Positions 6,597-23,357 of a stretch of DNA of 24,330 nt are shown piece by piece (position 1 is the first letter of the stretch; each line of letters opens with the position of its first letter). The stretch lies in the IMG/VR virus record IMGVR_UViG_3300036800_000376; one strand, 5' to 3'. Both the position numbers and the translations under genes were made by a program. A model generated the notes under the pieces. That model ran no database searches. It was not told the DNA's origin and was given only the letters and a program-made list of their open reading frames with translations. This DNA comes from an uncultured virus (IMG/VR IMGVR_UViG_3300036800_000376) (lineage: Duplodnaviria; Heunggongvirae; Uroviricota; Caudoviricetes).

Positions 6597-6607
6597 CACA
6601 AGCCTTC

Positions 6608-7111
6608 CTACGGGCAGATCTCGGCAACGACTATCGGCAGCGGCCCGAACGCGTTCGTCCCAGCGGGCTCCATGAATACAGCTAGGCTCTCCCGCCCTGA
6701 GACAGAGGCACTCGAGTAGGTCGTAACGAATCCCGGGAGCCTGAACGGTGGGCTCGTCACGTTCGCAAGAGCGAAACACTTGCTCGATAGCTGACCGCGA
6801 AAGACGATGGTGCCGTTACCACTAGCCCATCCGGTAGTGGTCGCCGGCTCGCTGGAGGACACGACCTGTCCGCCTTGGCCAATCCGTGCCCAAAACACCA
6901 CCGACCCGGCGATCGAGCGACTGTTGAGCTTGGCGGCGGTGATCGCCCCGTTCGCAAGCTTTTTCTGGGTGACCGCGGCGTTGTGCAGTTGGCGGGTGCC
7001 GATGCTGCCGGCAGGGATGCTGATGGCGGCGTAGCTGGTGCCCCCGAGCGCGCAGAAGAGCGCGAGGTACCCAACTAAGTTCGCGCGAATGTGGCCTGTA
7101 AGTCGTGTCAT
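6608..7111 (-). CDS. Secreted protein with short beta repeats
   Basis: GGAGG RBS. ANLVGYLALFCALGGTSYAA signal followed by SIGTRQL/AVTQKKL/AITAAKL repeats, a pattern I recognise from Solirubrobacterales exported proteins. Confidence 0.85.
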   Translation of the reverse strand: MTRLTGHIRANLVGYLALFCALGGTSYAAISIPAGSIGTRQLHNAAVTQKKLANGAITAAKLNSRSIAGSVVFWARIGQGGQVVSSSEPATTTGWASGNGTIVFRGQLSSKCFALANVTSPPFRLPGFVTTYSSASVSGRESLAVFMEPAGTNAFGPLPIVVAEICP

Positions 7112-8263: not shown

Positions 8264-8502
8264 TTCGACTCGATCTCGGAGAGTTGTTTTACAGAGGTCT
8301 GCAATGGTCTAACCGCGAGTCTACACGCCAAGTTTGTTGGAACGCGCATCAAGTACCCAAACCGCGAACAACCTCGCAAGTTCGACTCGCAGCTTTCTGA
8401 TGTCCTCTTCTTACCCTGCTGGCATACAAACCGGAACCTCGGGCGGGAGCGCGCAGCGCTCTCGTCGAGGGACTGATACTGCGGCTCGCGGATCTCGGTC
8501 AA
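8260..8502 (-). CDS. Small hypothetical protein, possibly frameshifted
   Basis: AGGAGG RBS and a TTG start overlapping the xis-like stop; the 3' half has atypical codons. Confidence 0.4.
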   Translation of the reverse strand: MTEIREPQYQSLDESAARSRPRFRFVCQQGKKRTSESCESNLRGCSRFGYLMRVPTNLACRLAVRPLQTSVKQLSEIESK

Positions 8503-8798
8503 GTCGCCTCCTGAGGGCGCACCAGGCTAGGAGGCTCTTGCCACGTATCCACGGTCTCAGGGGTGCGCAGCTTTATCGGCCGCGTGTTCAGCGGGGATGC
8601 TCCTCCGCCGGCGGCGTCATCGACATTTCGCTCGCCTGCGATCAGCGCGTCGACTTCACTCTCCGGGATCCGGTATTCGCCGCCAATTCGGACGGCAGAG
8701 AGCCGGCCGCGCTTTATGTACTTGCGGACGGCTTGGGTCGTCATGTTGATCCGGCGGGCGACCTCGACGGTCGTCAGAAGCGGCTCTTGCTGCGTCAA
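8499..8798 (-). CDS. Excisionase-family (HTH_17/MerR-like) DNA-binding protein
   Basis: LLTTVEVARRINMTTQAVRKYIKRGRLSAVRIGGEYRIPESEVDALI; GGAGG RBS; TTG 8798 overlaps the upstream TGA. Confidence 0.9.
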   Translation of the reverse strand: MTQQEPLLTTVEVARRINMTTQAVRKYIKRGRLSAVRIGGEYRIPESEVDALIAGERNVDDAAGGGASPLNTRPIKLRTPETVDTWQEPPSLVRPQEAT

Positions 8799-9253
8799 CT
8801 TGACCTCCGTTGTTCGCCGATCGCGGGAACGAGGCCGTCCTCCACGGCTACAGCGCGCGCGAGTTGCTCGGCGGCACGCGCGAGCTCGGTGTATCCGCGC
8901 GCGACAGCTGCGAGGCTCCGCCCCTGGCTTACGCGGTTGAGCTCCTCGAGCGCTTGATCGAAGATCAACCACAGATCGGCTGGTCCTCGTCTGCCGGTCC
9001 CGCGCTGGAGCTCGTAGGGTGGATCCGCTGGCCGAACCGGTGGCCACTCGAATCCTGCCTCGTGTGCCGCAGCGCATGCGGTCGCTTGGTGCGCGCACGC
9101 GCGAGAGAGAGCTGCCAAGCGGCTACTGAACCCCGCGTCTGGCTGCGCCATGCGGTGCCCGCGGATAGCCTGAGCGAGTTCTTCTCCCGCCTGCTCGAAC
9201 TCGGCTTGTGCTCGGTCGGGATCGACCGTCCGTTCTGGATCCGCCGAGGACAT
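8795..9253 (-). CDS. All-helical hypothetical protein, paralog of the central domain of 1834..2515
   Basis: ATG 9253 just downstream of a promoter; motif RL..L......A..C..A.EAG.E...PP.EL.....R......W...D.A.E.L is shared with the left-hand gene. Confidence 0.8.
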   Translation of the reverse strand: MSSADPERTVDPDRAQAEFEQAGEELAQAIRGHRMAQPDAGFSSRLAALSRACAHQATACAAAHEAGFEWPPVRPADPPYELQRGTGRRGPADLWLIFDQALEELNRVSQGRSLAAVARGYTELARAAEQLARAVAVEDGLVPAIGEQRRSS

Positions 9254-9264
9254 AAGCGTCGGCA

Positions 9265-9294
9265 ATCGTAGCAAACAGGGCGAACAGGCGACAA
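9265..9294 (-). promoter_or_regulatory. Putative housekeeping-sigma promoter of the xis-like operon
   Basis: TTGTCG-18 nt-TACGAT with a TGn extension, 11 nt before ATG 9253. Confidence 0.55.
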
Positions 9295-9458
9295 GGTTTC
9301 TGGTTCAATGCGAGCGGGTGCGCAGCGCCACTTCCCCCGGCTGGCCGAGATGATCGACTGGCCGGCGGGGTCTGAACCCGGGAGCACCGACGCGCTTCGA
9401 GTTTTTGCCGCGCGAGCTCCATCTCGTCGCGCTCAGCGGTTTGCGCACGGCGTGCGAC

Positions 9459-9752
9459 TCAGGAATCGGGCGCTACAGAGGCGAGATCGGTGCGGCGAGG
9501 GTGATGCGACGCATCGTCGGCGACTACGATCGCGCTCGCGTATGGGCTACGTAGCTCTCCGGGGATGTGTTGTAGCCAGAACTCTGGTGCGTCCTGAAAC
9601 CTCACCGGGCCATTAGCGCCGAGCACCGTGATCTCCGCGGTGATCCGCCGCGCTTTCTCGGGGTCTGGCCCGCCGAACATCGTCTCGCCCGCCTCGTGAC
9701 GGGCGGTCGCGATTAGCTCGCCTTGACTGTAGAAGTGTGCCTCGACCATCAC
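9459..9752 (-). CDS. Small hypothetical protein, candidate immunity/antitoxin for the upstream kinase
   Basis: 97-aa globular-looking ORF 8 nt after the kinase stop; last gene of the operon. Confidence 0.7.
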   Translation of the reverse strand: MMVEAHFYSQGELIATARHEAGETMFGGPDPEKARRITAEITVLGANGPVRFQDAPEFWLQHIPGELRSPYASAIVVADDASHHPRRTDLASVAPDS

Positions 9753-9760
9753 TGCCTAGT

Positions 9761-10993
9761 TTACCGTAGGGAGAGGCTGGCGGGTAGGCGTTCGGTGTTG
9801 AGCATGTCGGCGATCCGCTCGCGCATCGCCTCCGCGCGTTCCTCGCCGATCATCGGCGCGACGCCAAGCAGGCTGGGGCTCGCGCCAAGCCGTTCGAGCG
9901 TCTCGATTTCGTGCGGGTCGAGGCGCCCGAAGCCCATGCCCACACGGTGCTCTTGAAGCTGCGTGGCGTTGACGGCACCCCCGGGCTTGTGGAACGCGAA
10001 CCCGTGGTCGATCAGGCTCAGGGACCCGTCATGATCGACCAGAAAGTTACCGGCGTGACGGTCGGTGTTCCCGCACACCGCGTCGAAGAACGCGGCATCG
10101 CTGACCTGTTGGAAGTCGGAGTCAGCTCGCCAATCCATCAGCATGCCGGGGGTGCCGTCACGGTGCGCTGAGAGCGCCGACATGCCGTGCTCGTCGTCGT
10201 AAGTGAGCGCCGTCGTCGGCACCATGTGCGTGTAGCGCTCCCCCATTGCGCAGGCTAGATGAAACGCGGCTGCTTCGTGGGTGGCCTGCTCGTGGCCGTT
10301 AACCCCGTAGTACCCGAGGATGTTCGAGGTGTCCTCCTGCTCGACGGGCTTCAGGTAGGCGGTTGAGCCATCCGCAAGTGTTATGCGCTCGACATCGTTG
10401 GCGGTGCCACCGAGAGGCTGGCGGTAGGTGATGGTGGTATCTGCGAGCGCCTGGGCGGCGGCCTGGCTGGCCTGGGCGGCGAGCACAGCCGCGATCCGCT
10501 CGCGCTCCTCCTCTGTCGCCTCGGTGCCGCCACCGACGTCGTCGTTCTCGTAGCTGGCTGTGGCGTCGTCCCAGCCGTCGCCCGCCGTGCCCGTCCTGGC
10601 GGGCTCGCTCGAGGCCGGCGCGGCGGCGGCGTGGTGTCCGCGACTGGGAGGTGGGGGTGGCGGGGGTGGCGGATCGCCCGGGCCGGGGCGCGAGTCGCCG
10701 GACACGCTTGTCGCGACGAGCTGCTGGCCGGCGACCGTCATCGCTTGGCCACCTCCGCTGGCCTGATGGCCGACCTGATGGTTCTGACCGCCGCACGCGC
10801 ACTCGCATTTCTCCCGGATCGCGTAATAGCACTGGGTGTAGCACCCTTGCCTGACCTCGGCAGGCATCAGCCCGCGCTGCCAGTATTCGCCGCCCTTCGC
10901 CTTTGATGTCGCCCACAAAAGCACTGGCATCCCTGGTGTGAGCCGCGTTTGCCCGGTCATGGCGTCAGGGACCGGCGCGACTGGGGGGATCAT
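9761..10993 (-). CDS. PI3/4-kinase/HipA-superfamily kinase with N-terminal Cys/His cluster
   Basis: LGGTAN loop, AYLKP (Lys), HEAAAFHL (Glu), VPTT, FFDAVCGNTDRHAGNFLV, LIDHGFAF; N-terminal CYTQCYYAIREKCECACGGQNH; ATGA-coupled to the ATPase gene. Confidence 0.85.
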   Translation of the reverse strand: MIPPVAPVPDAMTGQTRLTPGMPVLLWATSKAKGGEYWQRGLMPAEVRQGCYTQCYYAIREKCECACGGQNHQVGHQASGGGQAMTVAGQQLVATSVSGDSRPGPGDPPPPPPPPPSRGHHAAAAPASSEPARTGTAGDGWDDATASYENDDVGGGTEATEEERERIAAVLAAQASQAAAQALADTTITYRQPLGGTANDVERITLADGSTAYLKPVEQEDTSNILGYYGVNGHEQATHEAAAFHLACAMGERYTHMVPTTALTYDDEHGMSALSAHRDGTPGMLMDWRADSDFQQVSDAAFFDAVCGNTDRHAGNFLVDHDGSLSLIDHGFAFHKPGGAVNATQLQEHRVGMGFGRLDPHEIETLERLGASPSLLGVAPMIGEERAEAMRERIADMLNTERLPASLSLR

Positions 10994-12186
10994 GGGTGCG
11001 CCTGGAGGACGCTGAGTGCGAGCTGCTTGAGTGCGACGCGTGCGTGAGCGGGGATCTGGTCCATGTTGTACTCGCCGTGCTCGAGGGCGTTCTCGATCGT
11101 CTCGTTGGCGGGAATGAGCAGTGGCGCGAGCCCGGCCTCGAGGAATTCCTCTTTGAGGATCTCCAGGTCCGCATGTTGGTGGTCGCGGATGTTGTTGATG
11201 ACCGCGAGTACCGCTGTCGCTTGAGCCTGTTGCTTTTCGCTGTCGACGAGCGCGCGAGCGTTGCGCAAATACCGATAGCTGTAGAGGAATCCTGCGGTGG
11301 TCGCGATCGTGGCGCGGCTCACGAGCACCGCGACATCACACGTCTCGGCGAGCGTACGACCGACCGTGTTCTGTAGCCCGGCGCCGGCGTCAAGGATCAC
11401 GAGCGGGTACTGCTGTCGTAGCCGGATGGCGATGCGGCGCAGGATGTCCGGACGATCCATCATGAGCGCGAGCATGGGCGCGTGGTGACCGGTCGCGTAG
11501 AGATCGACACCTGAGGGAAGGGTGGCTGCGTGCTGCTCGGGTGGGGTGTCGGGGTCGGAGATGAGCTGGCTCATCTCGCCTCCCTCGGGGGCCAGCACGG
11601 ATAGGCCCGCGAGCTCGGCGTCGCAGTCGACGAGCGCGACTGGTCCGTGTCCGGCGCGCGCGAGGATATCTGCGATCGCGAGCGAGAGCGTGCTCTTCCC
11701 CACCCCGCCAGCGCAGCTCATCACTGCGATCGTTCCAGTCCTCCCGACGGCGGCGTGGATCTTGCGGTCAAGGTCGGTCTCGGCCTGTTCGGGTTGCTGC
11801 GCGCGGCGACCGCTCCTGACGGCCGCTGGGGCTAATGCGCGTACTTCGCGTTCGTGGCCGTCGGCGCGGAAGTCTCGGTTTTGCTCGACGGGGCGCACGC
11901 CAGGGTTTCGACGCGGGCGAACAGGACCCGCCGGGAGCATCGACACGCCGACTGCCGGCCGGTACGGTGCCGGGACTACTGGTTGGAGCTCTGGGACGAC
12001 GAAGGTGTCGGCCGGTGGCGCAGGGATGACGTGAGAGGCCTCCGCGACGGTGCCGGCATCGTCAGCCACGCGGATGATGGCGGGGTTCTCTGCGGCTTCG
12101 TGATCTCGTGGCGGTGGGGGCGGCTCTTCCTGGTGTGGACGCCAGGTCCACGCACCTTCGCGTTTGAATGCTGGCCTGTCAGGCAT
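10990..12186 (-). CDS. MinD/ParA-family ATPase with Pro-rich N-terminus (EspI/FlhG-like architecture)
   Basis: IAVMSCAGGVGKST, VALVDCD, YPLVILDAGAG, VLAVINN. Confidence 0.88.
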   Translation of the reverse strand: MPDRPAFKREGAWTWRPHQEEPPPPPRDHEAAENPAIIRVADDAGTVAEASHVIPAPPADTFVVPELQPVVPAPYRPAVGVSMLPAGPVRPRRNPGVRPVEQNRDFRADGHEREVRALAPAAVRSGRRAQQPEQAETDLDRKIHAAVGRTGTIAVMSCAGGVGKSTLSLAIADILARAGHGPVALVDCDAELAGLSVLAPEGGEMSQLISDPDTPPEQHAATLPSGVDLYATGHHAPMLALMMDRPDILRRIAIRLRQQYPLVILDAGAGLQNTVGRTLAETCDVAVLVSRATIATTAGFLYSYRYLRNARALVDSEKQQAQATAVLAVINNIRDHQHADLEILKEEFLEAGLAPLLIPANETIENALEHGEYNMDQIPAHARVALKQLALSVLQAHP

Positions 12187-12694
12187 ATGGGCTTACGGTA
12201 CTCGCCTTCCAAGCTTTGTTCGTACGCTTGAGCTTGACCTTCACGGTGTAGGTCTCCTGCCCGTCATTGACGGTTGCGGTCGCGTCGACGGCGTTGTGGC
12301 CGCCCGGTTTGATCTGTAGCTGCAGGAGCTGGGGGTGCAGCGCGCGGATTGAGGGCGGAACGTTTGGTGGGTTGGTGGCCAGGCTCGCGCGTAGCTGCTC
12401 GGTTGAAGCTGCAATCCGCGTAGCGGGCTGGTGCCCGTACTCGAACGCGAGGTAGCCGCCCAGGAACGATCGTGCGGCCGCCGCGGGCCCGGTCTGCGGT
12501 CCGGTCACCGTCGCAGGCGGCGAATGCGCTCCCGTGGAGGCGGTGGAGGACGTCGTCGACGACGTCGAGTGGTGATGTGTGGCGCGATGTGCTGGCTTTG
12601 GTCCACCGGCGTGCTCGAGGGCCGCGACGATCCCAGCCGACGCGAGCACCACGGCAGCGATGAATGCGATCCACCTCGTGCGGGTTTCAGCCAT
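12179..12694 (-). CDS. Membrane-anchored protein with one putative NTF2-like (VirB8/TcpC-like) domain
   Basis: N-terminal TM, Ser/Thr linker, AARSFLGGYL...ATATVNDG..Y...L.....W pattern. Confidence 0.75.
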   Translation of the reverse strand: MAETRTRWIAFIAAVVLASAGIVAALEHAGGPKPAHRATHHHSTSSTTSSTASTGAHSPPATVTGPQTGPAAAARSFLGGYLAFEYGHQPATRIAASTEQLRASLATNPPNVPPSIRALHPQLLQLQIKPGGHNAVDATATVNDGQETYTVKVKLKRTNKAWKASTVSPYA

Positions 12695-12751
12695 CGCCTG
12701 CTCGTCGGCCGCCGAGCTCGGCGGTGTCTGTAGATATGGCTCTCACGGGGC

Positions 12752-12970
12752 TCATCGGCTTACGACGCGACTGCAGTTGTGCACCGAGCGCCAGGCCTGG
12801 AAAGCCGCGAACAGATTGTGGTGGGTGCTCAGGTCGTGATGCAGCCGCCACACGTGGAACGCGCAAGCGGCCGCGGAGCCAGTACGGATCTGGTGGCCAT
12901 CGATTGAGCAGCCGGCGCTCGTGAGCATCGCCGTGGTGGCCAGGAGCGCTACGAGCCTACGTCGGGTCAT
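12752..12970 (-). CDS. Small His-rich lipoprotein
   Basis: GAGAGGA RBS; MTRRRLVALLATTAMLTSAG-C lipobox; two further Cys. Confidence 0.75.
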   Translation of the reverse strand: MTRRRLVALLATTAMLTSAGCSIDGHQIRTGSAAACAFHVWRLHHDLSTHHNLFAAFQAWRSVHNCSRVVSR

Positions 12971-13067
12971 GGTTCAGTCCTCTCTTAGGTGGGCCGTGGA
13001 AATGGCTTTCCAGAGGGCGCGTGCGGGCGCCTACGGGGATGAGCGGCGGACGGACGATGGTCTTTGC

Positions 13068-13088
13068 TCCCCCTGGCGGCGAGGGGGA
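13068..13088. other. Intergenic stem-loop within the transfer operon
   Basis: TCCCCCT-7 nt-AGGGGGA. Confidence 0.35.
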
Positions 13089-13132
13089 TCAGGAGTCGCA
13101 GAGCTCGTGGCAGCTCCGATGCGTTGAAGGTC

Positions 13133-14032
13133 TCAGCCTGTGGTGGTTGCAAACCCATCCCCCTCCCATCCTGTTGTCGTTTTGCGCATCACGAAAGTGA
13201 GCGTCAATGACTCGCCGTCGTCGATGACGGTCGCCGTTGCGGTGAATCGTCCGGCCTGGATCGGGCCGTAGTCGATCGACCCCAGCGACGCGGCGACCCC
13301 GGTCTGCCGTTGTCCTGCGAGGGGGCCACGCCCGGTGCGGATCTGGCGCAACGCTTGCAACGTCGCTCGCGGCAGGGCAGCACGCGCCCCTTCGGCATAG
13401 TCGACGTACCCGAGCACGAAGCTCACCGCCGTGGTGCGCGCCGCGTGAGGAACGCTCGCGGCGGGCGGGCGGGCCGGTGGCTTGGCGTCGTCGGTCGCGA
13501 GGTCAGGCGGGATGATCTGCGTGACTAGCCACCGTCCTCTCTCTCGGGTCGCGTCGACCGTGAAGGGGTATGTGTGAGACGTGTTCGCGGCGACTGCGAG
13601 GACTTGCGTGGAGTAGACGGTGGATCCCTGCTGCTCGTAGGACGCGAGTCGCAGCCGCCCATCGCGATCCGTCGGGGGGATCCGCCCGCCCCCTACCGCG
13701 AGGTTCCGCGCGACCACGCTCGAGTACGGCAGCGCGCGCGCGGACGTCATCCCGCTCAGGTACGCGATGTAGGCCGCAACGAACGCGTGAACCACGTGGC
13801 CCGAGTCGGCCGCTGTGAGGCCACCTGAGGGCTTGTGAGCGGGCACCTGGGGCGTTGTGGTGGCCGTGGTCGGAACGGTCGGCGCCGGCGCGCTCGCGGC
13901 GGCGTGTTTCCTCACAGGCGTGGGATGGGGCGAGCCGTGACTCGAGAGCGCCGCTACGGCCACCAAAGCGCAGATCGCCGGGAGGGCGGCTAGCGCGACT
14001 TTCCTGGCCGTGGTGCGATGTGAGGGTCTCAA
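13133..14032 (-). CDS. Membrane-anchored protein with two putative NTF2-like (VirB8/TcpC-like) domains
   Basis: TTG 14032 overlaps the hydrolase stop (TTGA); TM helix; two repeats of F...Y..Y..G...LP ... aromatic-x-strand-W. Confidence 0.75.
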   Translation of the reverse strand: MRPSHRTTARKVALAALPAICALVAVAALSSHGSPHPTPVRKHAAASAPAPTVPTTATTTPQVPAHKPSGGLTAADSGHVVHAFVAAYIAYLSGMTSARALPYSSVVARNLAVGGGRIPPTDRDGRLRLASYEQQGSTVYSTQVLAVAANTSHTYPFTVDATRERGRWLVTQIIPPDLATDDAKPPARPPAASVPHAARTTAVSFVLGYVDYAEGARAALPRATLQALRQIRTGRGPLAGQRQTGVAASLGSIDYGPIQAGRFTATATVIDDGESLTLTFVMRKTTTGWEGDGFATTTG

Positions 14033-15516
14033 AAGCCTGGTGGGTGTCGTTGGACGTAGCCGGCGGTGCTCGATCCGGGCTGGTTTCCCCAGCGTGGCCC
14101 GTCGGATGGTGCTTGCGGGGGTTGCGGCGGCGCGTTCTCCCGACCCAACTGGGTATCGAAATAGATCCCTGCGACCTCGATGAACACATGCCCGCTGGTG
14201 GAGAACGTCGTGATCCATTTCCCTGGGCCCGGATCGCCGCGAATGGAGAAGTCGCCCGATACCAGAATCTGGCCGCCGAGGATGCTCTGCTGAAAACTAG
14301 TGCCCCAGAACAGATATGACGTGGCGCTCGAGCAGTCGTAGCCGGGCACGCCGTACTCCTCGGCGCCGGGGACCGCGGCGGGGTCGGGATTGCTCGCGCT
14401 CATCGTTTGCGCGGGGGCGCCGTGCGCGCCGCCGTAGCTGTAGCCAAAGTGGGCGATGCGGTTCCCGGCGGCGATCATTGCCTGCACTACGGGCGGAGCG
14501 TACGCCGGCGCCACAGCAAGCCCCGTTTTGGGGTCGATGATCGCCTTGGACCCTGGCACTGTCGGCCCGCCTCCGGTCGTCGGCGCGCAGGTGCTGGAGG
14601 ACGGTGTTGCCGTGGCCGCCGCCCCGGACGGGCTCGTGACGGTGGCTACGGGCCCCGCGCCGGTTTGCTGCGTCTGGCCCGCTTGCCCGTTCTGTGCGCT
14701 GGCGCCGCCGGTCGTCGCTTGGGTAGTAGCTCCGGTCCGGGCTGGAGCGGCCGTTGTGGAGGTCGAGGTCGGCGTCGTTGTGGAGGTGGGTGTGGTCGAG
14801 GTGGGATTCGGGCATGAGCACGACGTGCCTTGCCCCGACGTCGTGCCGCCAGCCTGCGACGTCGTCGGGGTCGCGGTCGGTGAGGTGGACTGGGCCGGTG
14901 TGGTCAGTGAGACGGGTACCGCGGTCGCGGGTGGGAGGCTTGGCGGGTGACCGTTCCACGCGGCGCTGATGGCCGCTGTCAGCGTCTGCACGCCCGTCGG
15001 GCCGAGATAGGTCGCGGCCGCGGCCTGCACCTCGGCGACGTACCACCCCGCGTGGTTGTACGCAAGGATCGCCGTCGGCCAGTTCCCTGGCGCGCCGGAA
15101 GCGTGCAGGTAGTTCGCGGCGCCGTAGATCGCGTCCTGCGCGTCGTAAACGTCCGGTGTCCCACCGGGATTAGACACAGCGACCCCGTACTTCGCCCAGG
15201 TGCCGGGCTCGAATTGCATCCACCCGATCGCGCCCGCCGACGAGGTGTTCATGTTTGTCCCGAAGCCGGTCTCGATCTTGTTGATCGCCGCGAGATACGC
15301 GTACCCGTCCGGGCCGAGCCCGTACCGTTGCGAGGCGGCCATGTAGTACTGCACCAGCGGGGGTTCGCCTGTGTACGACACCGGCTGAGCTGTCGTTGTC
15401 GCGCCGCATCCCGAAGCGGCATCGGTGACCACGGGGACGCTGGCGAACACCACCGCGAGCGCGATTCCACACAACGCCACGATCGAGGTCCCGGTGCCCA
15501 GCAGCACCCATCTCAT
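14029..15516 (-). CDS. Conjugative cell-wall hydrolase: lytic transglycosylase plus NlpC/P60-like peptidase (CwlT/TcpG/VirB1 analog)
   Basis: LAAINKIETGFG, SSAGAIGWMQF...TW, AIYGAANYL, AILAYNHA; Thr-rich linker; YSYGG, YDCSSATS, GHVFI. Confidence 0.92.
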   Translation of the reverse strand: MRWVLLGTGTSIVALCGIALAVVFASVPVVTDAASGCGATTTAQPVSYTGEPPLVQYYMAASQRYGLGPDGYAYLAAINKIETGFGTNMNTSSAGAIGWMQFEPGTWAKYGVAVSNPGGTPDVYDAQDAIYGAANYLHASGAPGNWPTAILAYNHAGWYVAEVQAAAATYLGPTGVQTLTAAISAAWNGHPPSLPPATAVPVSLTTPAQSTSPTATPTTSQAGGTTSGQGTSCSCPNPTSTTPTSTTTPTSTSTTAAPARTGATTQATTGGASAQNGQAGQTQQTGAGPVATVTSPSGAAATATPSSSTCAPTTGGGPTVPGSKAIIDPKTGLAVAPAYAPPVVQAMIAAGNRIAHFGYSYGGAHGAPAQTMSASNPDPAAVPGAEEYGVPGYDCSSATSYLFWGTSFQQSILGGQILVSGDFSIRGDPGPGKWITTFSTSGHVFIEVAGIYFDTQLGRENAPPQPPQAPSDGPRWGNQPGSSTAGYVQRHPPGF

Positions 15517-15629
15517 CAGCCGTTTCCCGGCTCAAGCGGCGCGATCCAGCCCGCCGCGGCACTCATGGTGGCGCCGTCGCGATTTCGCGCGTCGATAACT
15601 CCTTGGGCGGCGGCGTATCGGACGGTCAT
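15516..15629 (-). CDS. 37-aa coupled mini-ORF (not in the ORF track)
   Basis: MTVRYAAAQGVIDARNRDGATMSAAAGWIAPLEPGNG*; ATGA overlap at the start and TGATG overlap at the end. Confidence 0.35.
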   Translation of the reverse strand: MTVRYAAAQGVIDARNRDGATMSAAAGWIAPLEPGNG

Positions 15630-15925
15630 CGCTGGCGGTCCTCGAAGTCCGCCGCGAGTGGGGACGGTCGCGTGGCGCGGCGTGTTGGTTGGTGGTGGTA
15701 GACGCCGATGGTCTCCTCGCAGCTGACGTCCTCGAGCTCATGGAGGACGTACCGCACGTGTCCCGGTCGTGGTGGGGCGTCGGGGTTCGCCGGGCGGCTT
15801 ATGAGCGGTCCCGGAGCGGCGGGAAGGTCGATCGCGCGATAGCGGAGGGTCTGCTCGATCGTGTCGTGCGCTCCTCGAAGCTCGGCACCGTCATACGGTC
15901 CGTCGACGTAGAGGTGGGTGACCAT
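15626..15925 (-). CDS. Hypothetical protein
   Basis: 99 aa; starts 2 nt after the VirB6-like stop; LYVDGPYDG N-terminal motif; GC3-rich codons. Confidence 0.65.
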   Translation of the reverse strand: MVTHLYVDGPYDGAELRGAHDTIEQTLRYRAIDLPAAPGPLISRPANPDAPPRPGHVRYVLHELEDVSCEETIGVYHHQPTRRATRPSPLAADFEDRQR

Positions 15926-15927
15926 GC

Positions 15928-18813
15928 TCAGGGAGTCCCGTTGGGTGGTGGTAGCGGTGGTGGTGACGGTGGTTTGCGCTCGGCGTCGCGGACGAGTCGT
16001 TGCAGCTCGTCGCCGAGCTCGGGAGCGTTGGGCGACAGCGCACCTGGTGGTGAAGGTGGTGGCGCGTCTCGACGAGTTGGTGGCGCTTCGCGCGATCCGT
16101 TCCCGGGGCGTGGCGTTGGCGTGTCGTGCTGCTGTGTGCGGTGAGCTTCGGCGGCGGCAGCTCGGTTCGCTCGTGAGGTCTGGGCGGTTCTCGCGAGCTC
16201 GTCTCGCTCCGCGTCGGGTTTGACCTCGCGTAGCCGTGCGGCGACGTGGGGCATGTTTTCGCTGTCCGCGAGGGCGGCTGCTCGTTCGCGCTGGTCTGCG
16301 GTCATTGCTGAGGCGAGCCGTTCGGGGGAGTGGCTGCCCAGCCGGTTCAGGGACGTTTGGAGGCGTTGGCGGTCCTCCCGCTGGCCGGCGGCGCCACTGG
16401 GAGCGCTTGGGGTGCGGAGCTCGCCGTGCGCGGCTTCGACCTCGTCGACGTCGTCGAGGACGCGATCGGTTTCGACTCCAGGGAGATCCGCGGTGCCGCT
16501 GCCGCCGTCGGGGAGGGATCCCGGGGCGAGTGGGTCGATGGGCCCGTCAGGACCCTCTCCGTTCGGTGACGGGGGGGTGTCTGGCGGCCGGTCGTCTGCT
16601 GCTCCTCCTGGCGACGGTGGCGGCGGTGGTGGCGGGCTGTCGGAGGTGCCTGCCCCGGACTTTGGTCCGCGGCTGCCGAGACCGAAGGCTCCGAGGATGG
16701 CGCCGCCGGCGGCGCTGACACCGGCGGTTGCTGCGATGGCGGTGCCCTTGGCGGTCTTGCTGCCCATCCGCGCGAGGCGGGTTCGGCGGTATGCGCGGGC
16801 GAACTCGTCGCCGGCTGACCCGTCCTGCGGCTGGTGGCTCGTGAGCGCCTGGTTGAAATGGCCGACAAGCTTGCGGCGTTTCGCCATGACGACCCAGAAG
16901 AACGCGATCTGGATGAGGTACTCGAAAAGCCATCCGAAGCCGGTTAGTTGCGCGGCGCCGATGATCCCGAACTCGATCGTCAACAGAACGACGAGCACGA
17001 GCGCGTAGATGAACTTGCGGATGAGGGCTGTGAGCATCCTCTTCCCCCACAGGTAGAAGAGTTGGTGGCCGCGGCCTGGGAAGAGCCCGGCGAGGAGGAG
17101 CACAGGGAGCACCACGAGTCCGAACAGCACCTCGAGCTGCGCGACGACGACCCCGATTGAGAGGCCACCGAGGATGAACACCAGCGGGATGGACCCGATC
17201 AGCACGAGGACTGCGACGGCCAGGCGTTGGCCTTGTGCGTTCTCGAGTTGCGCGTCGACGGCCGGGGTGTCTGGCCAGTTCACCGCGAGCGCTTTCTGGA
17301 GGCCCATCCCGAGGGGGTCGGATTGGATGCCGGGGGTGGATTGCTGCTTGGCGGAGACCTCCTCGATTGCAGTGAAGATCTCGTTGCGCATCCCGCCGAT
17401 CGGGGAGGCGGCAGGCGACGACCCGCCGGCCTGCGACCACACCGACAGGCTCGAGTTGACGTTCGGTGCGAGCGCGCCGTTCGGGTGACCGTCGAACGGA
17501 CCGATCTTGCAGCTCGGGTTGGTGCCCTCCGGCACCAGCATCTGAAACTGGTGGTTGACGAGCTTGTTCTCGTTCGCGAGAAGAGCGGCTTGCTCGAGCT
17601 GGAGGTCGCACTGTGGGTTGTCGGCCTCGAGGTACCAGTCGGCGTATTTCTGGTTCGGGATCGGGTGCGTAGTGACGTGCTTGGAGCCGGGGTAGGGTGC
17701 GCATCCGGTCGCACCGGAGGTGGGGTCAGCGACCGAGATCCCCGCGTTGGGGCCGGCTGGCGCGTTAGCGGTGCAATGGTCGAGCCCTCCGAAGTCGAGG
17801 ATCTCGAACGGCTGGAAGACCGCGAGTTTGAATAGGGCGTCTTGTGCGGTGAGGAGCGATCCTTGGTTGGTTTGGAGGCCGCCGGCGCCGGAGTTCACTG
17901 GCGTGTCTGAGGCGACGGTCGCGGTGAGCGATAGGGCGCTGTCGGCGAGCTGGTTGGTGGTGTCCGCGGCCCATCCGATCGTGTTCGCGGGGTCGGCGAT
18001 GATCGCGAGCGCCGCCGCGTAGATCAGCACCGAGACCGCGACCCCCGCGAGGGTCCGAACGTATCGTTGCTTGACCAGCCCGTTCCACAGCGCGTAGAGA
18101 CCGATCGCGGCGAAGGTGACGAACAGCACGTCCTGGAAAGGACCGGCGTGGAAAAGGCCGCTCACGGCGCCGTGGAGCCCGTTGAGTAGCCCGACACCGT
18201 GTGTGAATTGCGATCCTCCCGTGCCTGGCGCGCTGGTGATGAGGTTTAGCGAGAACGCGAAGCCGAAGATGAGGAACGCGATGTGCAGCCCTAGCAGCGC
18301 GAGCTCCCACAGAATCCACGAGATCGTGTAGAACGCGAGCGCTGGGAGGCCGGAGAGATCGATCCCGGTGAGGCCGACACTGACCCCTCCGATGTGCTGA
18401 TCGAGGTCATAGGACCCCCAGGGGTAAGCGCCGTAGTAGCTTCCGACGCATGGTGCGGCCGCGCCGGTGTTGGTTACGCATTGCGTTTGGGGTGCGTTGA
18501 AGTCGAGGAGGTCGGTGCCGTGGTAGGCGTAGTCGCCGTACGCGCCGGCGACGCCCGCTATCGGGACCGAGATCACCGCCGCGAGCGACCCGATCACCAG
18601 CACCCGACGAGCCACCCGAAGGCCTGCAGCGAGCCGGCGCCGCTGCGGCGCCCGGGCCCGCCGGCGAGCGATCCACCGCTCGAGCGCGGACCCGCGGACC
18701 CGCGCATCAATCCGCGCGATAGTCCACGCCACCCCAAGCGCGGTGGCTGCCACAGCCACCGCGTTTATGAGCGCCCACAGCAGCCCGCCGCTGGCGGTCG
18801 TTCCGCTCGTCAC
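15928..18813 (-). CDS. VirB6/TcpH/ConG-like polytopic conjugation channel protein
   Basis: Many TM segments, an extracellular Cys-containing loop, LFGLVVLPVLLLAGLFPGRG..F..W motif, Pro-rich cytoplasmic tail; follows VirB4 with a GTGA overlap. Confidence 0.85.
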   Translation of the reverse strand: MTSGTTASGGLLWALINAVAVAATALGVAWTIARIDARVRGSALERWIARRRARAPQRRRLAAGLRVARRVLVIGSLAAVISVPIAGVAGAYGDYAYHGTDLLDFNAPQTQCVTNTGAAAPCVGSYYGAYPWGSYDLDQHIGGVSVGLTGIDLSGLPALAFYTISWILWELALLGLHIAFLIFGFAFSLNLITSAPGTGGSQFTHGVGLLNGLHGAVSGLFHAGPFQDVLFVTFAAIGLYALWNGLVKQRYVRTLAGVAVSVLIYAAALAIIADPANTIGWAADTTNQLADSALSLTATVASDTPVNSGAGGLQTNQGSLLTAQDALFKLAVFQPFEILDFGGLDHCTANAPAGPNAGISVADPTSGATGCAPYPGSKHVTTHPIPNQKYADWYLEADNPQCDLQLEQAALLANENKLVNHQFQMLVPEGTNPSCKIGPFDGHPNGALAPNVNSSLSVWSQAGGSSPAASPIGGMRNEIFTAIEEVSAKQQSTPGIQSDPLGMGLQKALAVNWPDTPAVDAQLENAQGQRLAVAVLVLIGSIPLVFILGGLSIGVVVAQLEVLFGLVVLPVLLLAGLFPGRGHQLFYLWGKRMLTALIRKFIYALVLVVLLTIEFGIIGAAQLTGFGWLFEYLIQIAFFWVVMAKRRKLVGHFNQALTSHQPQDGSAGDEFARAYRRTRLARMGSKTAKGTAIAATAGVSAAGGAILGAFGLGSRGPKSGAGTSDSPPPPPPPSPGGAADDRPPDTPPSPNGEGPDGPIDPLAPGSLPDGGSGTADLPGVETDRVLDDVDEVEAAHGELRTPSAPSGAAGQREDRQRLQTSLNRLGSHSPERLASAMTADQRERAAALADSENMPHVAARLREVKPDAERDELARTAQTSRANRAAAAEAHRTQQHDTPTPRPGNGSREAPPTRRDAPPPSPPGALSPNAPELGDELQRLVRDAERKPPSPPPLPPPNGTP

Positions 18814-21251
18814 GCGGGCACCGCTTCGAGCTGCCTTTGGGACGTGTTGAACGCTTCGAGCATCGCTGGCTCGAGGTCGAACTGGACTTCGCCGAGGCGC
18901 CCGTGGATGTCGCGCATCAGGCAGAGGCCCTTCTTGTAGCCGCGGACACGGCTGATCCGTCGGGTGCCGGCGTCGGGGAGTCCGACCTGCTCGAGCGCGG
19001 CGCGGGCGTCAGCCTCGGTTGGCTGCCCGAAGATCATGTAGGTGCCGATGAGGCTCGAGAGGTCCCCGATGTCGGCTAGTCGCTGGGTGGCGATCACGAT
19101 GACTGCGTTCATCGCGCGGCCCATTCGCACCAGGCGCTGGAAGAGCGCGCGTCCTTGCGCGCTTGCGAGCAGGAACCACGCCTCGTCGACGATGATCACC
19201 TTGTTGCGGGTGGGGTCGCCGGACACGAGCCGGAGCGCCATGTCAGCCAGCAGTCCGAGTGTCGCGACCCCGATCCGCTCCCGGTCTGAGTAGCTCTCCC
19301 GGGTTTGGGATGCGTCGGGGAGATCGAGCGTTGGGGTGCGAATGCTCGTGAGCATCGCCCGCGCCGAGATGGTGTCATCGCCGGGGGGTCCGAATGCGAG
19401 TTTCGCGAGCCCGAAGTCAGCCCACGAGGCGAGCTCCTCCGCGACGGCGGTCGCGATCGTTCCGCCGGCGCGGAGACGATCGATCACCGCGAGTGACCCC
19501 CATTCGGCGTGGTGCATGCACTCGCGGATCGCTTTCGTGAGCGCGGGGCGGGCGCCCTGTTGGCGCATCGTGCCGTCCCCGACGAGCTGCGTGAAGTAGC
19601 TCATCGCGGCCTCCTCGCGCACTTCGGGGAGCGGGACGCGCATCGGGTCGAGTTGCCCGCGGTTCGCGTCGCCGCTGGAGAGCTCGAAGTGGCTCACGAG
19701 ATGCCCGATTGGGGCGTACTTGTGGAACCCGTGGTCGGGTTTGGGGTCGATGTCGACGACCTGGCTGCCGCGGAGCAGCGCTGTGGTGGCGATGCTCTGC
19801 AGGCTGACGGTCTTGCCTGACCCGAGATCGCCGGCGAGGAGGACCGCGGATCCGGCGTTCTCGCGGGAGGGCTCGGTCACGTCGAACTTGACCACTCGGC
19901 GGGTGACCGGCGTGTATCCGACGTAGGGGCCTTCGAGGCTCCCGACCGCGGTGGTGGCCATCGGGACCATCACCCCGATCTGCTCAACGGTCAGTGGGTC
20001 ATCCCACTCGTGCACCGCGGAGCCGCAGCGTGGGAGGTGCTCGTAGTACAAGCGGCGCTGGATACCGGAGGGGCGGTGCACGGTCAGCGGCCGATAGGCG
20101 TCCTTGATCTTGGTGACTCGCCGTTCGAGTTCTTTGTGCTCGGGAGCGCCGACGATGAGTTGCAGGGAGCCCGTCATCAGCGGCGGGTGGTCCTCGCGAT
20201 CGAGGTAGGCCTGCAGCAGGCGCGCTACTTGCCGGGTGTCTCCCGCGGTCCAGGACTCGCCGAGGATTCCGGATTCCTCCTCGCGGGAGCTGTTGTCGAC
20301 GTCGAGGGTCCGGCGGCGCGCTTCGCGGCGCGCGCGCTCGTTGCTCATGTACTTCCAGTGGAGCGCGCAGTCGACGGGGAACTCGAGGCGCTCGAGGGGC
20401 GCGAACATAAGCTCGCACTGAGGGCCGGGCCAGGGAGGATGTTCGGGTAGTGCCCCGAGCACGAGCGCTGACTGGTAGGAGGTGCCGTGCTCGGATTCGA
20501 CCTCGAGGTGCGTGTCGTGGCGGGTGATTCTCGCCTTCGCTGCGCGGTCGATGATGGTGCTCAAGGGCCGGTAGGACCGGTTGGTGCCGTCGTCATCTGA
20601 GACCACGAGGGCTCGTGGGCGCCAGAACTCGTCGAGCTCGGGCTCAGCGAGCCCGCGGCAGCGTGCGCGCGCGAGGAGCCATTGGATCTCGCGGGTGTCC
20701 GCGCGGTCGATACCGATCTCCCCGAGCGGGCCCTGCAGCTGGTCGAACAGGGTGCTTTCCTGGTCGCGGATCGTGACGAGCTCGTCCTCCATGACCGGCG
20801 CGGCGGATTGCACGCCGGCGGCGGACTCAACGCGGCGGCTGATCCTCCATAGCGCACGGCGGGTTTCCGCGATCATCGCGGCCGCGTCGGTGGACTCCGG
20901 TAGGCGGATCGCGAGGTAGACCTCGACGTCGCGAGGGTTCAGCCGGTCGATGAGATGCTCGTGCCAGTTGACATGCCAGCGCCATATCGGCTCGTCGGCG
21001 TAGCGGGTGTCGACCGTCCGGGCGGCCTGGCGGGCGTAGTGCTCGGCGGGGTAGCTGCGGCACACTCTCCAGATCGATCCGTCGCTTCGCGCTTCCATCG
21101 CGGCGAGCGCGAGGGACGCTGCGACCTCATATTTCTGCTGGTCGGTGAGGAACTCGTATGAGGTGTTCTGCAGGCGGTAGAGCGCGCGGCGCTCGCCACC
21201 GTGACCGAACAGGATGTTCCCGTCGACGTGGGTGACTCCGAGCATCCTCAT
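18810..21251 (-). CDS. virB4: VirB4-like conjugative ATPase (TcpF/ConE type)
   Basis: 813 aa; Walker A GDLGSGKT, VVDIDPK, Walker B IIVDEAW, VRMGRAMNAVIVIATQ, GLCLMRDIHGRLG. Confidence 0.93.
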   Translation of the reverse strand: MRMLGVTHVDGNILFGHGGERRALYRLQNTSYEFLTDQQKYEVAASLALAAMEARSDGSIWRVCRSYPAEHYARQAARTVDTRYADEPIWRWHVNWHEHLIDRLNPRDVEVYLAIRLPESTDAAAMIAETRRALWRISRRVESAAGVQSAAPVMEDELVTIRDQESTLFDQLQGPLGEIGIDRADTREIQWLLARARCRGLAEPELDEFWRPRALVVSDDDGTNRSYRPLSTIIDRAAKARITRHDTHLEVESEHGTSYQSALVLGALPEHPPWPGPQCELMFAPLERLEFPVDCALHWKYMSNERARREARRRTLDVDNSSREEESGILGESWTAGDTRQVARLLQAYLDREDHPPLMTGSLQLIVGAPEHKELERRVTKIKDAYRPLTVHRPSGIQRRLYYEHLPRCGSAVHEWDDPLTVEQIGVMVPMATTAVGSLEGPYVGYTPVTRRVVKFDVTEPSRENAGSAVLLAGDLGSGKTVSLQSIATTALLRGSQVVDIDPKPDHGFHKYAPIGHLVSHFELSSGDANRGQLDPMRVPLPEVREEAAMSYFTQLVGDGTMRQQGARPALTKAIRECMHHAEWGSLAVIDRLRAGGTIATAVAEELASWADFGLAKLAFGPPGDDTISARAMLTSIRTPTLDLPDASQTRESYSDRERIGVATLGLLADMALRLVSGDPTRNKVIIVDEAWFLLASAQGRALFQRLVRMGRAMNAVIVIATQRLADIGDLSSLIGTYMIFGQPTEADARAALEQVGLPDAGTRRISRVRGYKKGLCLMRDIHGRLGEVQFDLEPAMLEAFNTSQRQLEAVPA
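19741..19837. repeat. 97-bp direct repeat, copy 1 (VirB4 Walker A region)
   Basis: 88 of 97 nt identical to 22240-22336, ungapped, by manual alignment. Confidence 0.95.
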
Positions 21252-21850
21252 CGCTGGCCTCCGCGGACACGCAGCCGCTCCCCGGCCTCCACGCGGACCA
21301 TGGCGACGCCGCTGGGGTCGTCCTCGTGTAGCGGGGTGATCTCGTGGCGGCGGTGGCGGTAGCGCAGTGCGACCGGATCGCGGGTGTAGACGGTCGCTGG
21401 GCCGGTGATTTCGCCGTCGAGGAGGATTGGCCAGTCCGGGCCGGGCGCGAGCGTCACGGTCTCATCGAGCACCTCGGCGATCCCGGCTCTCGGGAGGCGC
21501 TCCTCGCCGTAGAAGTGCTTGCCCGCGAAGTGCTCTGAGATCAGCGACGTCCAGTGTCGGTGGGGCATCCTGCCGTGCGGGCGGTAGCGCGCTCCTACGT
21601 ACGCTCCGGCGGCCGGGATGAGTGTGAACGCGATCTCTGGTGGGACCGCGCCGGCTAGCAGGTCGATCCCGGGGATGTTGCGCGCGAGGAAGACGAGCGC
21701 GATCGCTGCGATGAAGTAGGCGGCACCCCAGATCGGGATCCCTCCGGGGACGGGGATCCGCCACTCTCCTTGCCCGTTTGGGATCGCGTAGACGCGGCGC
21801 TCGAGGCGATACACGCGACGCCACGACCGCACCTCCATTTCGCCCGCCAT
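21248..21850 (-). CDS. tcpE: TcpE-family conjugal transfer membrane protein (VirB3-like)
   Basis: SWRRVYRLERRVYAI...WRIPVPGGIP, two TM helices, PHGR motif; directly upstream of VirB4; GAAGGGAG RBS. Confidence 0.85.
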   Translation of the reverse strand: MAGEMEVRSWRRVYRLERRVYAIPNGQGEWRIPVPGGIPIWGAAYFIAAIALVFLARNIPGIDLLAGAVPPEIAFTLIPAAGAYVGARYRPHGRMPHRHWTSLISEHFAGKHFYGEERLPRAGIAEVLDETVTLAPGPDWPILLDGEITGPATVYTRDPVALRYRHRRHEITPLHEDDPSGVAMVRVEAGERLRVRGGQR

Positions 21851-21884
21851 GCCGGTTCTCCCTTCCTCCGCGGCGTTCTCGGGG

Positions 21885-22355
21885 TCAGCCCGAGAAGAAG
21901 CTCGAGACCTGGTTCCCGAGCGCGGTGAGGTGCCCGAGGGGGTCTCCGATGACCCATCCGACTAGCGCGCCAGCGACGATCGCGACGAGCAGCTTTCCGT
22001 GCTCGGCGCGGCCATAGTGCTTGAGCGCCATCGCGCCGACCGCGATCGCGAAGATCCATGGGATCCAGTCCTGCCAGAGCTGCTTGAGGTTCGCCGATCC
22101 GCCCTTGAATGGATCCGTCCCGCCCGTCGCCGCGGCGGCCGTCGCGGGATGCGCGATCAGGAGCGCGCCCACGAGGAGCGTGGCGGCTGTCGCGAGTGCG
22201 ATCCAGGTCGAGCGTGATTGATGACGCTGCTGCTCGGCCTTGGGGTCGACGTCGACGACCTGGCTGCCGCGAAGCAGCGCCGTGATGACGATGCCCTGCA
22301 GGCTGACGGTCTTGCCTGACCCGAGCCTGCCGGCGAAGTGTGTCCTCGGTGACAT
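21885..22355 (-). CDS. TcpD/VirB2 pilin-like membrane protein with an extra VirB4-derived N-terminal segment
   Basis: AGGAGG RBS before ATG 22355; signal-like helix ending PATAAA, then two hydrophobic helices and a DP motif; sits between tcpC and tcpE. Confidence 0.75.
   Translation of the reverse strand: MSPRTHFAGRLGSGKTVSLQGIVITALLRGSQVVDVDPKAEQQRHQSRSTWIALATAATLLVGALLIAHPATAAAATGGTDPFKGGSANLKQLWQDWIPWIFAIAVGAMALKHYGRAEHGKLLVAIVAGALVGWVIGDPLGHLTALGNQVSSFFSG
22240..22336. repeat. 97-bp direct repeat, copy 2 (inside the pilin-like gene)
   Basis: Encodes AGRLGSGKTVSLQGIVITALLRGSQVVDVDPK. Confidence 0.95.
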
Positions 22356-22386
22356 TGCTCTTCCTCCTGCTGATTGGACGGTGCCG

Positions 22387-23262: not shown

Positions 23263-23268
23263 CTGTAT

Positions 23269-23297
23269 ACCGTACCAAACACAGCGATGCAGAACAA
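23269..23297 (-). promoter_or_regulatory. Putative promoter of the transfer operon, leaderless
   Basis: TTGTTC-17 nt-TACGGT with a TGn extension, 6 nt before ATG 23262; no RBS. Confidence 0.6.
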
Positions 23298-23357
23298 ACA
23301 GGGCAATCACCCGGTCTTACGGTGTCGTGGCCTGACGAGAGGGCACGACGCGAGGGG

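Follow-up and report, generated by a model that had tools for sequence, protein, structure and literature searches.

A modular atypical kinase and its conserved small partner at the end of a Gram-positive-type conjugation operon: a candidate transferable effector pair

Why should an actinobacterial operon that encodes a conjugation machine end in a kinase and a small protein? The question is raised by a 24,330-nucleotide stretch of DNA from an uncultured virus record (IMGVR_UViG_3300036800_000376; the whole stretch is referred to here as the window), which has a G+C content of 67% and whose minus strand carries most of its length as one run of genes, including those of a Gram-positive-type type IV secretion system (T4SS). 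After these genes come an open reading frame (ORF) for a 410-amino-acid modular kinase, P0001, and one for a 97-amino-acid protein, P0002. An earlier sequence-only reading of this DNA had proposed a T4SS-delivered toxin with its immunity gene or, alternatively, a kinase that regulates mating. Our analysis best accommodates a kinase effector and a neutralising partner, transferable as a pair and hard-wired into the T4SS operon, a tentative interpretation whose chances we place somewhat below even; transport of the kinase through the window's own T4SS, suggested by architecture and context, is likewise held to be slightly less probable than its contrary. The features of the pair are as follows.

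9761..10993, minus strand: 410-amino-acid modular kinase protein P0001 (ORF and translation).
10865..10969, minus strand: amino acids 9-43 of P0001, a short conserved motif, hydrophobic and Trp-rich, hairpin-like (likeness to the relative L003).
10688..10864, minus strand: amino acids 44-102, Cys/His module ending in a conserved G-D-S-R-P motif.
10505..10687, minus strand: amino acids 103-163, linker, Pro-rich and then acidic (translation).
9764..10504, minus strand: amino acids 164-410, kinase domain (28-sequence alignment and AlphaFold2 model).
9459..9752, minus strand: 97-amino-acid partner P0002, putative neutraliser of the kinase (leave-one-out hidden Markov model and family profile).

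By alignment and fold prediction, the C-terminal 247 residues of P0001 constitute a minimal, catalytically complete atypical kinase of the structural group that includes PI4KII, Fam20, CtkA and HipA. Residues Lys215, Glu240, Asp311-Arg312-His313 with Asn316, and Asp329-His330 are invariant in a 28-sequence family alignment, and Gly331, which completes the Asp-His-Gly motif, is kept in at least 90% of the sequences. When the AlphaFold2 model of the domain (predicted local distance difference test, pLDDT, 92.6; predicted template-modelling score, pTM, 0.91) was compared by VIA-align with all structural representatives, the top match was PI4KIIalpha (4pla_A; Z 18.4, root-mean-square deviation 3.2, 229 of the 247 residues; second match at Z 17.9), followed by Fam20 (Z 13.4-13.8), CtkA (12.8), HipA (11.6), actin-fragmin kinase (11.2), HipT (11.0), MavQ (10.8) and CotH (10.6); Foldseek agreed, returning Fam20C (E 5e-7) and PI4KIIalpha. 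The ATP-binding Lys, the helix-C Glu, the DxHxxN-type catalytic loop and the metal-binding Asp are shared with PI4KIIalpha, Fam20C and the CtkA of H. pylori, whereas the window domain is a bare core devoid of the eukaryotic inserts.

Sequence identity to the closest solved folds is 13-19%, and the Pfam profile PI3_PI4_kinase (PF00454) matches only residues 296-338 (profile positions 133-176 of 241), with 28.3 bits against a cut-off of 27.1. This match is marginal; what identifies the domain as a kinase is the fold model together with the alignment of the family. A sequence search of the PDB with the kinase family profile returned only Fam20C (E 1e-3), with neither HipA nor HipT among the matches at E<=1, and P0001 has no HipA_C (PF07804) or HipA_2 (PF20613) match at E<=0.01. 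The 'intact PI3/4-kinase/HipA-type domain' of the sequence-only reading is thus upheld as regards its catalytic residues and its PI4KII/Fam20/HipA fold group, but not as regards HipA at the level of sequence. The SCO1664 family (TIGR03843), the best NCBIfam match of P0001, was also rejected, as its score (31.8 bits) lies far under the cut-off of 172.4. Judged by these sequence comparisons, the kinase is a member of neither the HipA nor the SCO1664 family.

The family to which the domain does belong is large. An exhaustive phmmer search with P0001 retrieved 812 cluster representatives at E<=1e-3 (205 at E<=1e-10), which align to residues ~165-405 and have very different N-termini. Weak profile matches were also found in 126 of 401 sampled Actinomycetota genomes, mostly to a lower-scoring paralogue (71 bits or less, with a single match in each genome), and were not counted as family members; ten genomes of this tally, and two of the 29 control loci considered below, are flagged as unpublished, and no other result makes use of such genomes. 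Seven giant proteins (P0085, P0099, P0100, P0142, P0146, P0153 and P0156; 987-3184 amino acids) carry two to four tandem copies of the kinase domain, P0099 having ADPrib_exo_Tox and DRAT domains besides.

Comparison of loci indicates that the gene downstream encodes a conserved cognate partner for the kinase domain, ~90-100 amino acids long, which travels with it. The P0002 ORF begins with GTG 8 nt past the kinase stop codon, and codon-position G+C fits coding in its frame, with a third-position signal weaker than in the kinase gene. Searched by tblastn, the kinase was found on eight large Micrococcales plasmids, and in all five of the intact-kinase plasmid loci that were read (L054-L058: Microbacterium plasmid B, M. 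luteus NZ_CP043850, Glutamicibacter pGnpA106, Brevibacterium pAP13 and Micrococcus pLMA7) a partner-family ORF of 84-131 amino acids lies directly downstream. When the five products are aligned with P0002, one Trp is invariant and a motif near the C-terminus is conserved. Indeed, a hidden Markov model of these five plasmid partners, built without P0002, ranked P0002 first of 5078 ORFs, training members apart (E 1.1e-5); the next matches were the ORFs just after both kinase genes of the Solirubrobacterales genome G001 (E 1.4e-4 and 6.5e-4) and the following one stood at E 0.33. The partner accordingly adjoins the kinase in both loci of that genome (L022 and L001), the second of which lies near a DDE transposase. 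The SCO1664-like paralogue loci within the same ORF set (L025-L053), on the other hand, have no partner (0/29); their family shares the catalytic half of the domain with the window kinase.

A profile of eight partners matched 345 proteins, nearly all unnamed and ~103 amino acids in length. P0002, previously taken for an orphan, is therefore one of a family with no fewer than 345 members, and a partner adjoins the kinase in all intact loci read (five Micrococcales plasmid loci, the two of G001 and five phage contigs), whatever the N-terminus of the kinase, be it the Cys module, an 'MCR' type, none at all or a MuF/portal region. Plasmids pJD12 and pCW.Ay have the same kinase-then-partner order by annotation, and a 47-amino-acid open frame 3' of the L003 kinase, ended by the contig edge, resembles the partner N-terminus by eye only. 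In the Micrococcus luteus plasmid pSGAir0127 (L125) the genes for FtsK/SpoIIIE and for the kinase are each broken into short ORFs, and the region appears decayed. Neither the kinase family (812 cluster representatives) nor the partner family carries any annotation at present, no description of the kinase-partner family was found in the literature searched, and no PADLOC model matches either protein.

The pair also occurs in phages. A scan of viral contigs yielded 32 loci in which the kinase domain forms the C-terminal part of proteins of 270-2200 amino acids. Among 22 viral kinase ORFs scanned for domains, near-duplicates left out, seven contain portal and/or Phage_Mu_F above the Pfam cut-off (L071, L088, L078, L099, L075, L074 and L085) and three more contain MuF below it (L081, L086 and L079). 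When 5257 ORFs from 39 viral loci were searched with the partner profile, each of the five best matches adjoined a kinase ORF, four being on its strand and immediately 3' of it (L071, E 2.3e-4; L075, 0.042; L085, 0.13; L073, 0.24) and the fifth tail-to-tail with it (L081, E 3e-4). The G+C content of these contigs ranges from 33 to 69%. P0001 itself gave no tblastn match in phages and has no Phage_Mu_F (PF04233) or portal domain according to Pfam. The layout of the phage proteins matches that of MuF polymorphic toxins and polyvalent proteins, which, in the available text of the papers describing them, are thought to enter the host together with the DNA (PMC5576092; PMC5512222).

The kinase ATG (10993-10991) overlaps the TGA (10992-10990) of the ORF at 10990-12186 as ATGA, in agreement with the translational coupling noticed earlier. 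A database gene call, P0004, starts the kinase at Met22; the ATGA start is favoured over it because relatives conserve the sequence from residue 9 on, L003 being 60% identical across residues 9-43 (35 residues). The Cys/His cluster CxxxCxxAxxxxCxCxCGGxNH of the sequence-only reading is present in the translation exactly (C51-x3-C55-x2-A58-x4-C63-x-C65-x-C67-G-G-x-N71-H72, with His76 following), and the module containing Cys51, Cys55, Cys63, Cys65, Cys67, His72 and His76 is probably metal-binding. The poly-Pro/acidic linker is also as described, with a run of nine Pro residues (108-116) and an acidic stretch (~139-166); its length and sequence differ among relatives, P0009/L003 having a long coiled-coil-like insert at this place.

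The Cys module is common to P0005, P0009, P0067 and L002-L005, and is joined to several kinds of C-terminal part. It precedes the kinase in the window protein, in P0005 and in P0009/L003, where the coiled-coil-like insert lies between the two. In P0067 (291 amino acids) the same module and Pro linker, 46% identical over residues 45-171, lead to an ADP-ribosyltransferase domain (ADPrib_exo_Tox, PF03496, E 2e-13), in L002 and L004 the module is placed on a HExxH protein with weak matches to ATLF (E 0.014) and Zn_peptidase_2 (E 0.007), and in L005 on a short tail. The remaining loci of a metagenome scan with the module, which gave 20 in total, encode small phage-like proteins with this Cys motif at their C-terminus. 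The module corresponds to the last ~30 positions of phrog_6842 (function unknown), whose 69 actinophage records are named 'hypothetical protein'; in L007-L021 and these records, the motif terminates mycobacteriophage and Arthrobacter phage proteins of ~100-140 amino acids, often with more CxxC pairs upstream. A word-based search with the N-terminal 99 residues recovered only the window's own protein, tblastn of the N-terminal module gave no match in plasmids and phages, and the ESM Atlas returned only a viral hypothetical cluster (score 0.75). The plasmid kinases have a different N-terminal region, Cys-containing and basic, and L022 and many others have none.

Kinase domain and Cys module have each been recombined independently, the former with portal/MuF and the latter with ADP-ribosyltransferase or HExxH domains. 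As far as can be judged from the sequences, two hallmarks of polymorphic toxins are present: one N-terminal module is followed by different C-terminal enzymatic domains, and the small downstream cognate gene follows the toxin domain and not the N-terminal module. Regarding the latter, the gene 3' of the L002 HExxH protein is unrelated to the partner, a single contrasting case that gives the downstream variation anticipated by the sequence-only reading its one example. What comparison preserves of the proposed layout, a targeting domain, linker and toxin followed by an immunity gene, is an N-terminal module, a linker, a variable enzyme and a cognate downstream gene. The observations best fit a cassette in which mobile elements would attach kinase and partner to different delivery parts. 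In L003, the Cys-module kinase (L003:3736-5412) is immediately preceded, in its own reading frame, by an ADP-ribosylglycohydrolase ORF (L003:2116-3657; PF03747, E 2e-63) whose C-terminal extension has the motif found at residues 9-43 of P0001; a split or once-fused multi-domain protein may account for the two ORFs.

The surroundings of the pair in the window comprise the following features.

12179..23310, minus strand: Gram-positive-type T4SS genes and unknowns upstream of the kinase gene (Pfam, NCBIfam).
22387-23310, minus strand: TcpC (PF12642, E 1e-13).
21885-22397, minus strand: TrbC/VirB2-like, weak (Pfam/NCBIfam).
18810-21251, minus strand: VirB4-like AAA_10 ATPase (PF12846, E 3e-56).
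15928-18813, minus strand: 961-amino-acid CD3337/EF1877-type membrane protein (NF046089, E 8e-21).
14029-15516, minus strand: SLT transglycosylase (SLT, E 6e-8).
10990..12186, minus strand: ParA/MinD/CbiA-type P-loop ATPase (PF01656, 34.9 bits; PF13614; PF10609; weak NCBIfam BcsQ/MinD-type matches).
8800..9458: stretch of ~650 nt 3' of the partner gene without a convincing coding frame (codon-position G+C).
8499..8805, minus strand: HTH_17 (excisionase/MerR-like) DNA-binding gene (PF12728 at amino acids 107-155 of a listed 199-amino-acid ORF, 8499-9098).

TcpC, a VirB4-like ATPase, a VirB6-like polytopic membrane protein and a cell-wall hydrolase, gathered in one strand run, have the composition expected of a Gram-positive-type conjugative T4SS resembling those of pCW3, Tn916 and ICEBs1. 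The gene to which the kinase is coupled encodes a P-loop ATPase, as had been claimed, but one of ParA/MinD/CbiA type and not the VirB4 traffic ATPase; it has a Pro-rich N-terminal extension of 150 amino acids, probably disordered. No coupling protein or relaxase was recognised among the window proteins in the Pfam and NCBIfam scans. Two minus-strand ORFs, at 4440-6779 (779 amino acids) and 7133-8263 (376 amino acids), had no match in Pfam, NCBIfam, PHROG, PADLOC or the PDB sequences, and the product of one or the other may be an unrecognised relaxase or coupling protein. Elsewhere in the window, a Uma2-family endonuclease is encoded on the plus strand at 2543-3325, and 6608-7111 has a weak ParD-like match (E 3e-4).

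Downstream of the partner gene, the ORFs 8965-9387 and 9123-9422, as well as the 5' half of the HTH_17 ORF, have low-quality, Arg/Ser/Pro-rich translations. Rfam and tRNA searches gave no match in 8800-9458, the repeats in 8700-9500 are unremarkable, and neither a promoter-like site nor a minus-strand terminator was found in 8000-13200. As 8800-9458 has no convincing frame, the kinase-partner pair probably ends the operon, which makes the earlier description of the kinase gene as the penultimate one plausible. The helix-turn-helix (HTH) gene beyond is probably of ~100 and not 199 codons, the listed ORF being over-extended at its 5' end, since the G+C frame signal is seen only below ~8820 and both the HTH and the coding signal lie in the 3' ~100 codons.

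The plasmid loci bear on whether the link with conjugation is general. In the related Micrococcus linear plasmids the kinase gene is two genes after that of an FtsK/SpoIIIE-type ATPase, and in Glutamicibacter pGnpA106 it follows a VirB4-like/M23/FtsK-like block; inserted between the two are an element of the IS481 family and a cmx gene, predicted to specify chloramphenicol efflux (L056, 9054-11218). Related plasmids being counted once, the pair is T4SS-adjacent in three lineages and not adjacent in two. Megablast of positions 9400-21300 found no close DNA relative among plasmids (0 matches), a ParA/MinD-type gene was not found beside the kinase in the plasmid loci, and tblastn of the other window proteins against these loci gave no match except for the VirB4-like protein; because only this protein otherwise matches, the pair is common to distantly related transfer systems. 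On the M. luteus plasmid locus L055 (16086-16703 and 18170-19084), the region 3' of the pair encodes an 80-amino-acid protein with two CxxC pairs, a 66-amino-acid protein that is HicA-like by eye, an HTH_17 protein and a protein with an AbiTii domain (PF18864, E 1e-30). The available text of the paper on the Micrococcus plasmids does not mention a kinase.

If the kinase is indeed a conjugative effector, the donor would make it and keep it inactive by means of the partner, and the N-terminal module and linker would pass it on either to the mating machinery or to the DNA being transferred. Once in the recipient, it would phosphorylate a protein, or possibly a lipid, and the cell would be arrested or reprogrammed, while recipients expressing the element would make the partner and thus be protected. 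The element may profit through takeover or anti-defence while it becomes established, an advantage proposed for the polyvalent proteins that phages inject, or else by punishing cells that fail to keep it.

Several observations weigh against delivery by the T4SS. Known T4SS substrates mostly use C-terminal signals, and one at the N-terminus would be unusual. Small actinophage proteins, too, end in the Cys module, which may serve to bind DNA or metal rather than for trafficking. The sequence-only reading had suggested looking for the Cys domain fused to other toxin domains in virB4-linked loci; the fusions were found (ADP-ribosyltransferase in P0067, HExxH in L002 and L004), but the contigs L002 and L003 have no T4SS gene in the available flanks. 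Similarly, the expected link of homologues with conjugation loci holds for the Micrococcales plasmids on which T4SS or coupling-ATPase genes are neighbours, but not for Microbacterium plasmid B and Brevibacterium pAP13, in which the pair is away from recognisable T4SS genes and no VirB4-like match was found. Moreover, the five Micrococcus plasmids are related and count as one lineage, and MOB-suite classes seven of the eight plasmids as non-mobilizable. Finally, a stand-alone version exists among chromosomal genes: in G001 (L063, C5:641732-661700) a kinase of 245 amino acids without N-terminal module, a partner of 103 and an XRE HTH protein of 95 are followed by an AAA_14/ATPase_2-type ATPase and a PIN-domain (VapBC-like) pair, between housekeeping genes, an arrangement that has the appearance of a small toxin-antitoxin- or defence-like islet.

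A broader proposal, which we regard as doubtful, extends the effector interpretation to Gram-positive-type conjugation systems of Actinomycetota at large: these would inject proteins as well as DNA, the Cys/His module and Pro linker would be a hitherto unrecognised translocation or DNA-piggyback tag for interchangeable warheads (PI4KII-like kinase, ADP-ribosyltransferase or metallopeptidase-like), and the partner would be the immunity protein, so that only cells keeping the element recover. Actinobacterial membranes contain phosphatidylinositol and the closest fold is that of a phosphatidylinositol kinase, so that in this proposal the target could even be a membrane lipid instead of a protein. 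Little has been documented of protein transfer by Gram-positive-type conjugation machines, and to our knowledge their described core operons contain no effector-immunity pair.

The strongest competing explanation, though unlikely in our estimation, is a kinase toxin-antitoxin system that is not secreted and acts in addiction or abortive infection, in the manner of HipBST or HipJS; the partner would be the antitoxin and the nearby HTH protein possibly a regulator, the pair would stabilise the element or defend the host, and its place in a transfer operon would be incidental. The chromosomal islet of G001 keeps this explanation alive, as the kinase, partner and HTH genes stand there alone as a minimal three-gene set beside the PIN/VapBC-like pair, and an HTH gene is also found 3' of the pair in the window and in L055. 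HipA and HipT are, in addition, structurally related to the kinase (Z 11-11.6).

The predicted structure of the partner (pLDDT 81; a small beta-sheet, two helices and a disordered tail) leads in the same direction. In a search of 48,161 chains its best matches were 7vkb_B (Z 4.4), probably Legionella HipS, and 7ab3_B (Z 4.2), the HipS of E. coli HipBST, both of ~100 amino acids and from kinase complexes, and N-subdomains of HipA ranked sixth and eighth (Z 3.2 and 3.1). All chains, however, scored below Z 5, and values of 4.2-4.4 are in the range that the structural tool calls common; Foldseek found nothing at E<=0.001, its best matches (E 0.25-2) being Ig-like (immunoglobulin-like) and unrelated chains. 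Nor did sequence comparison agree: HipS/Couple_hipA (PF13657) matched none of 24 partners at E<=10, hhalign of the partner family against 12 actinobacterial Couple_hipA domains gave a probability of 0.2%, the PDB sequence search with the partner profile returned nothing meaningful at E<=10 and the ESM Atlas returned nothing for the partner. With low structural scores and failed sequence tests, a HipS-like fold is a lead only. The toxin-antitoxin explanation further has to contend with a kinase that lacks HipA_C and HipA_2 and whose solved sequence relatives reduce to Fam20C, and with the absence of PADLOC matches, and it leaves without explanation the N-terminal modules shared with ADP-ribosyltransferase and HExxH proteins and the fusions with portal/MuF.

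We know of no Hip system that has N-terminal delivery modules or lies inside a T4SS operon. In other respects the pair resembles HipBST and hipJS, as described in the available text, in that a small core kinase sharing the broad fold is accompanied by an adjacent partner of ~100 amino acids and a nearby HTH gene (PMC6581861; PMC8262856). The bicistronic hipJS modules have, moreover, the same gene order, a core kinase followed by HipS (PMC8262856), to which the predicted fold of the window partner is weakly similar. Unlike them, the window pair has no membership by sequence, and the kinase fold is clearly nearer to PI4KIIalpha (Z 18.4) than to HipA/HipT (Z 11).

That the kinase is an establishment gene, made in the new host from the incoming element and blunting defence or the SOS response without ever being transported, seems improbable. 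The pair of Microbacterium plasmid B is beside DprA, HNH, DNA methyltransferase, helicase and DUF4192 genes, a set resembling early or anti-restriction regions, and the ADP-ribosyltransferase and portal/MuF domains associated with the family are of the conflict type. In the window, on the other hand, the pair is the distal part of a structural T4SS operon and not a separate early region, and the N-terminal module and linker would be left with no obvious role. The proposal that the kinase regulates mating, by phosphorylating T4SS components, the ParA-like ATPase or envelope targets in the donor with the small protein as substrate, adaptor or activator, is as improbable and gained no support. 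In its favour, the kinase gene is translationally coupled to the ParA/MinD-type gene at the end of the T4SS operon, and the Fam20A-Fam20C complex among the structural neighbours offers a precedent for a kinase that requires a partner. Against it, the pair is found without transfer genes in the chromosomal islet and, as a fusion with portal/MuF, in phages, the plasmids do not conserve the ParA-like gene beside it, and the replacement of the kinase by an ADP-ribosyltransferase or HExxH domain behind the same N-terminal module is typical of conflict effectors and not of dedicated regulators.

A transferable effector with its neutraliser thus remains the preferred interpretation, and two groups of known systems offer a comparison. 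X-Tfe effectors, which kill bacteria, belong to Gram-negative VirB-type systems and carry a C-terminal XVIPCD signal. The window system is instead of Gram-positive type (TcpC, CD3337-type), its candidate signal is N-terminal, its cargo is a kinase and transport is putative; the C-terminus of P0001 has no Pfam domain beyond the kinase, and no XVIPCD model was searched. Common to both would be a T4SS-linked toxic effector with a cognate protective protein, and the available text of the work on Xanthomonas and Stenotrophomonas indicates that the X-Tfi immunity protein can guard against self-intoxication (PMC6759196; PMC10933484; PMC6536674). The MuF toxins of temperate phages (Jamet et al. 2017, PMC5576092), like the polyvalent proteins of phages and conjugative elements (Iyer et al. 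2017, PMC5512222), resemble P0001, as far as the available text describes them, in having an N-terminal delivery or anchoring part, a linker, an exchangeable C-terminal enzyme and a small cognate gene; relatives of the window kinase domain are found on portal/MuF proteins, and ADP-ribosyltransferase domains occur in the same architectures. The window protein differs in having no MuF or portal domain, and its small Cys/His module is not named in the available text of either paper. The word 'kinase' is absent from the available main text of PMC5576092, and the kinases of PMC5512222 are a truncated Ser/Thr/Tyr-kinase clade of Verrucomicrobia and Bacteroidetes phages, together with zeta-toxin-like kinases, with neither 'PI3K' nor 'HipA' appearing in its available main text.

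One kinase-partner cassette thus links phage MuF/portal cargo, conjugative operons and chromosomal toxin-antitoxin-like islets, which are usually studied apart. The locus constitutes an inexpensive test system, with a 247-amino-acid kinase whose catalytic residues can be mutated, a 97-amino-acid candidate antidote and a short N-terminal tag suitable for reporter fusions. Should the partner prove to be an inhibitor, the two proteins would represent a new kinase-inhibitor fold pair, and the N-terminal tag, if confirmed, would provide a handle for finding more conjugation-delivered effectors.

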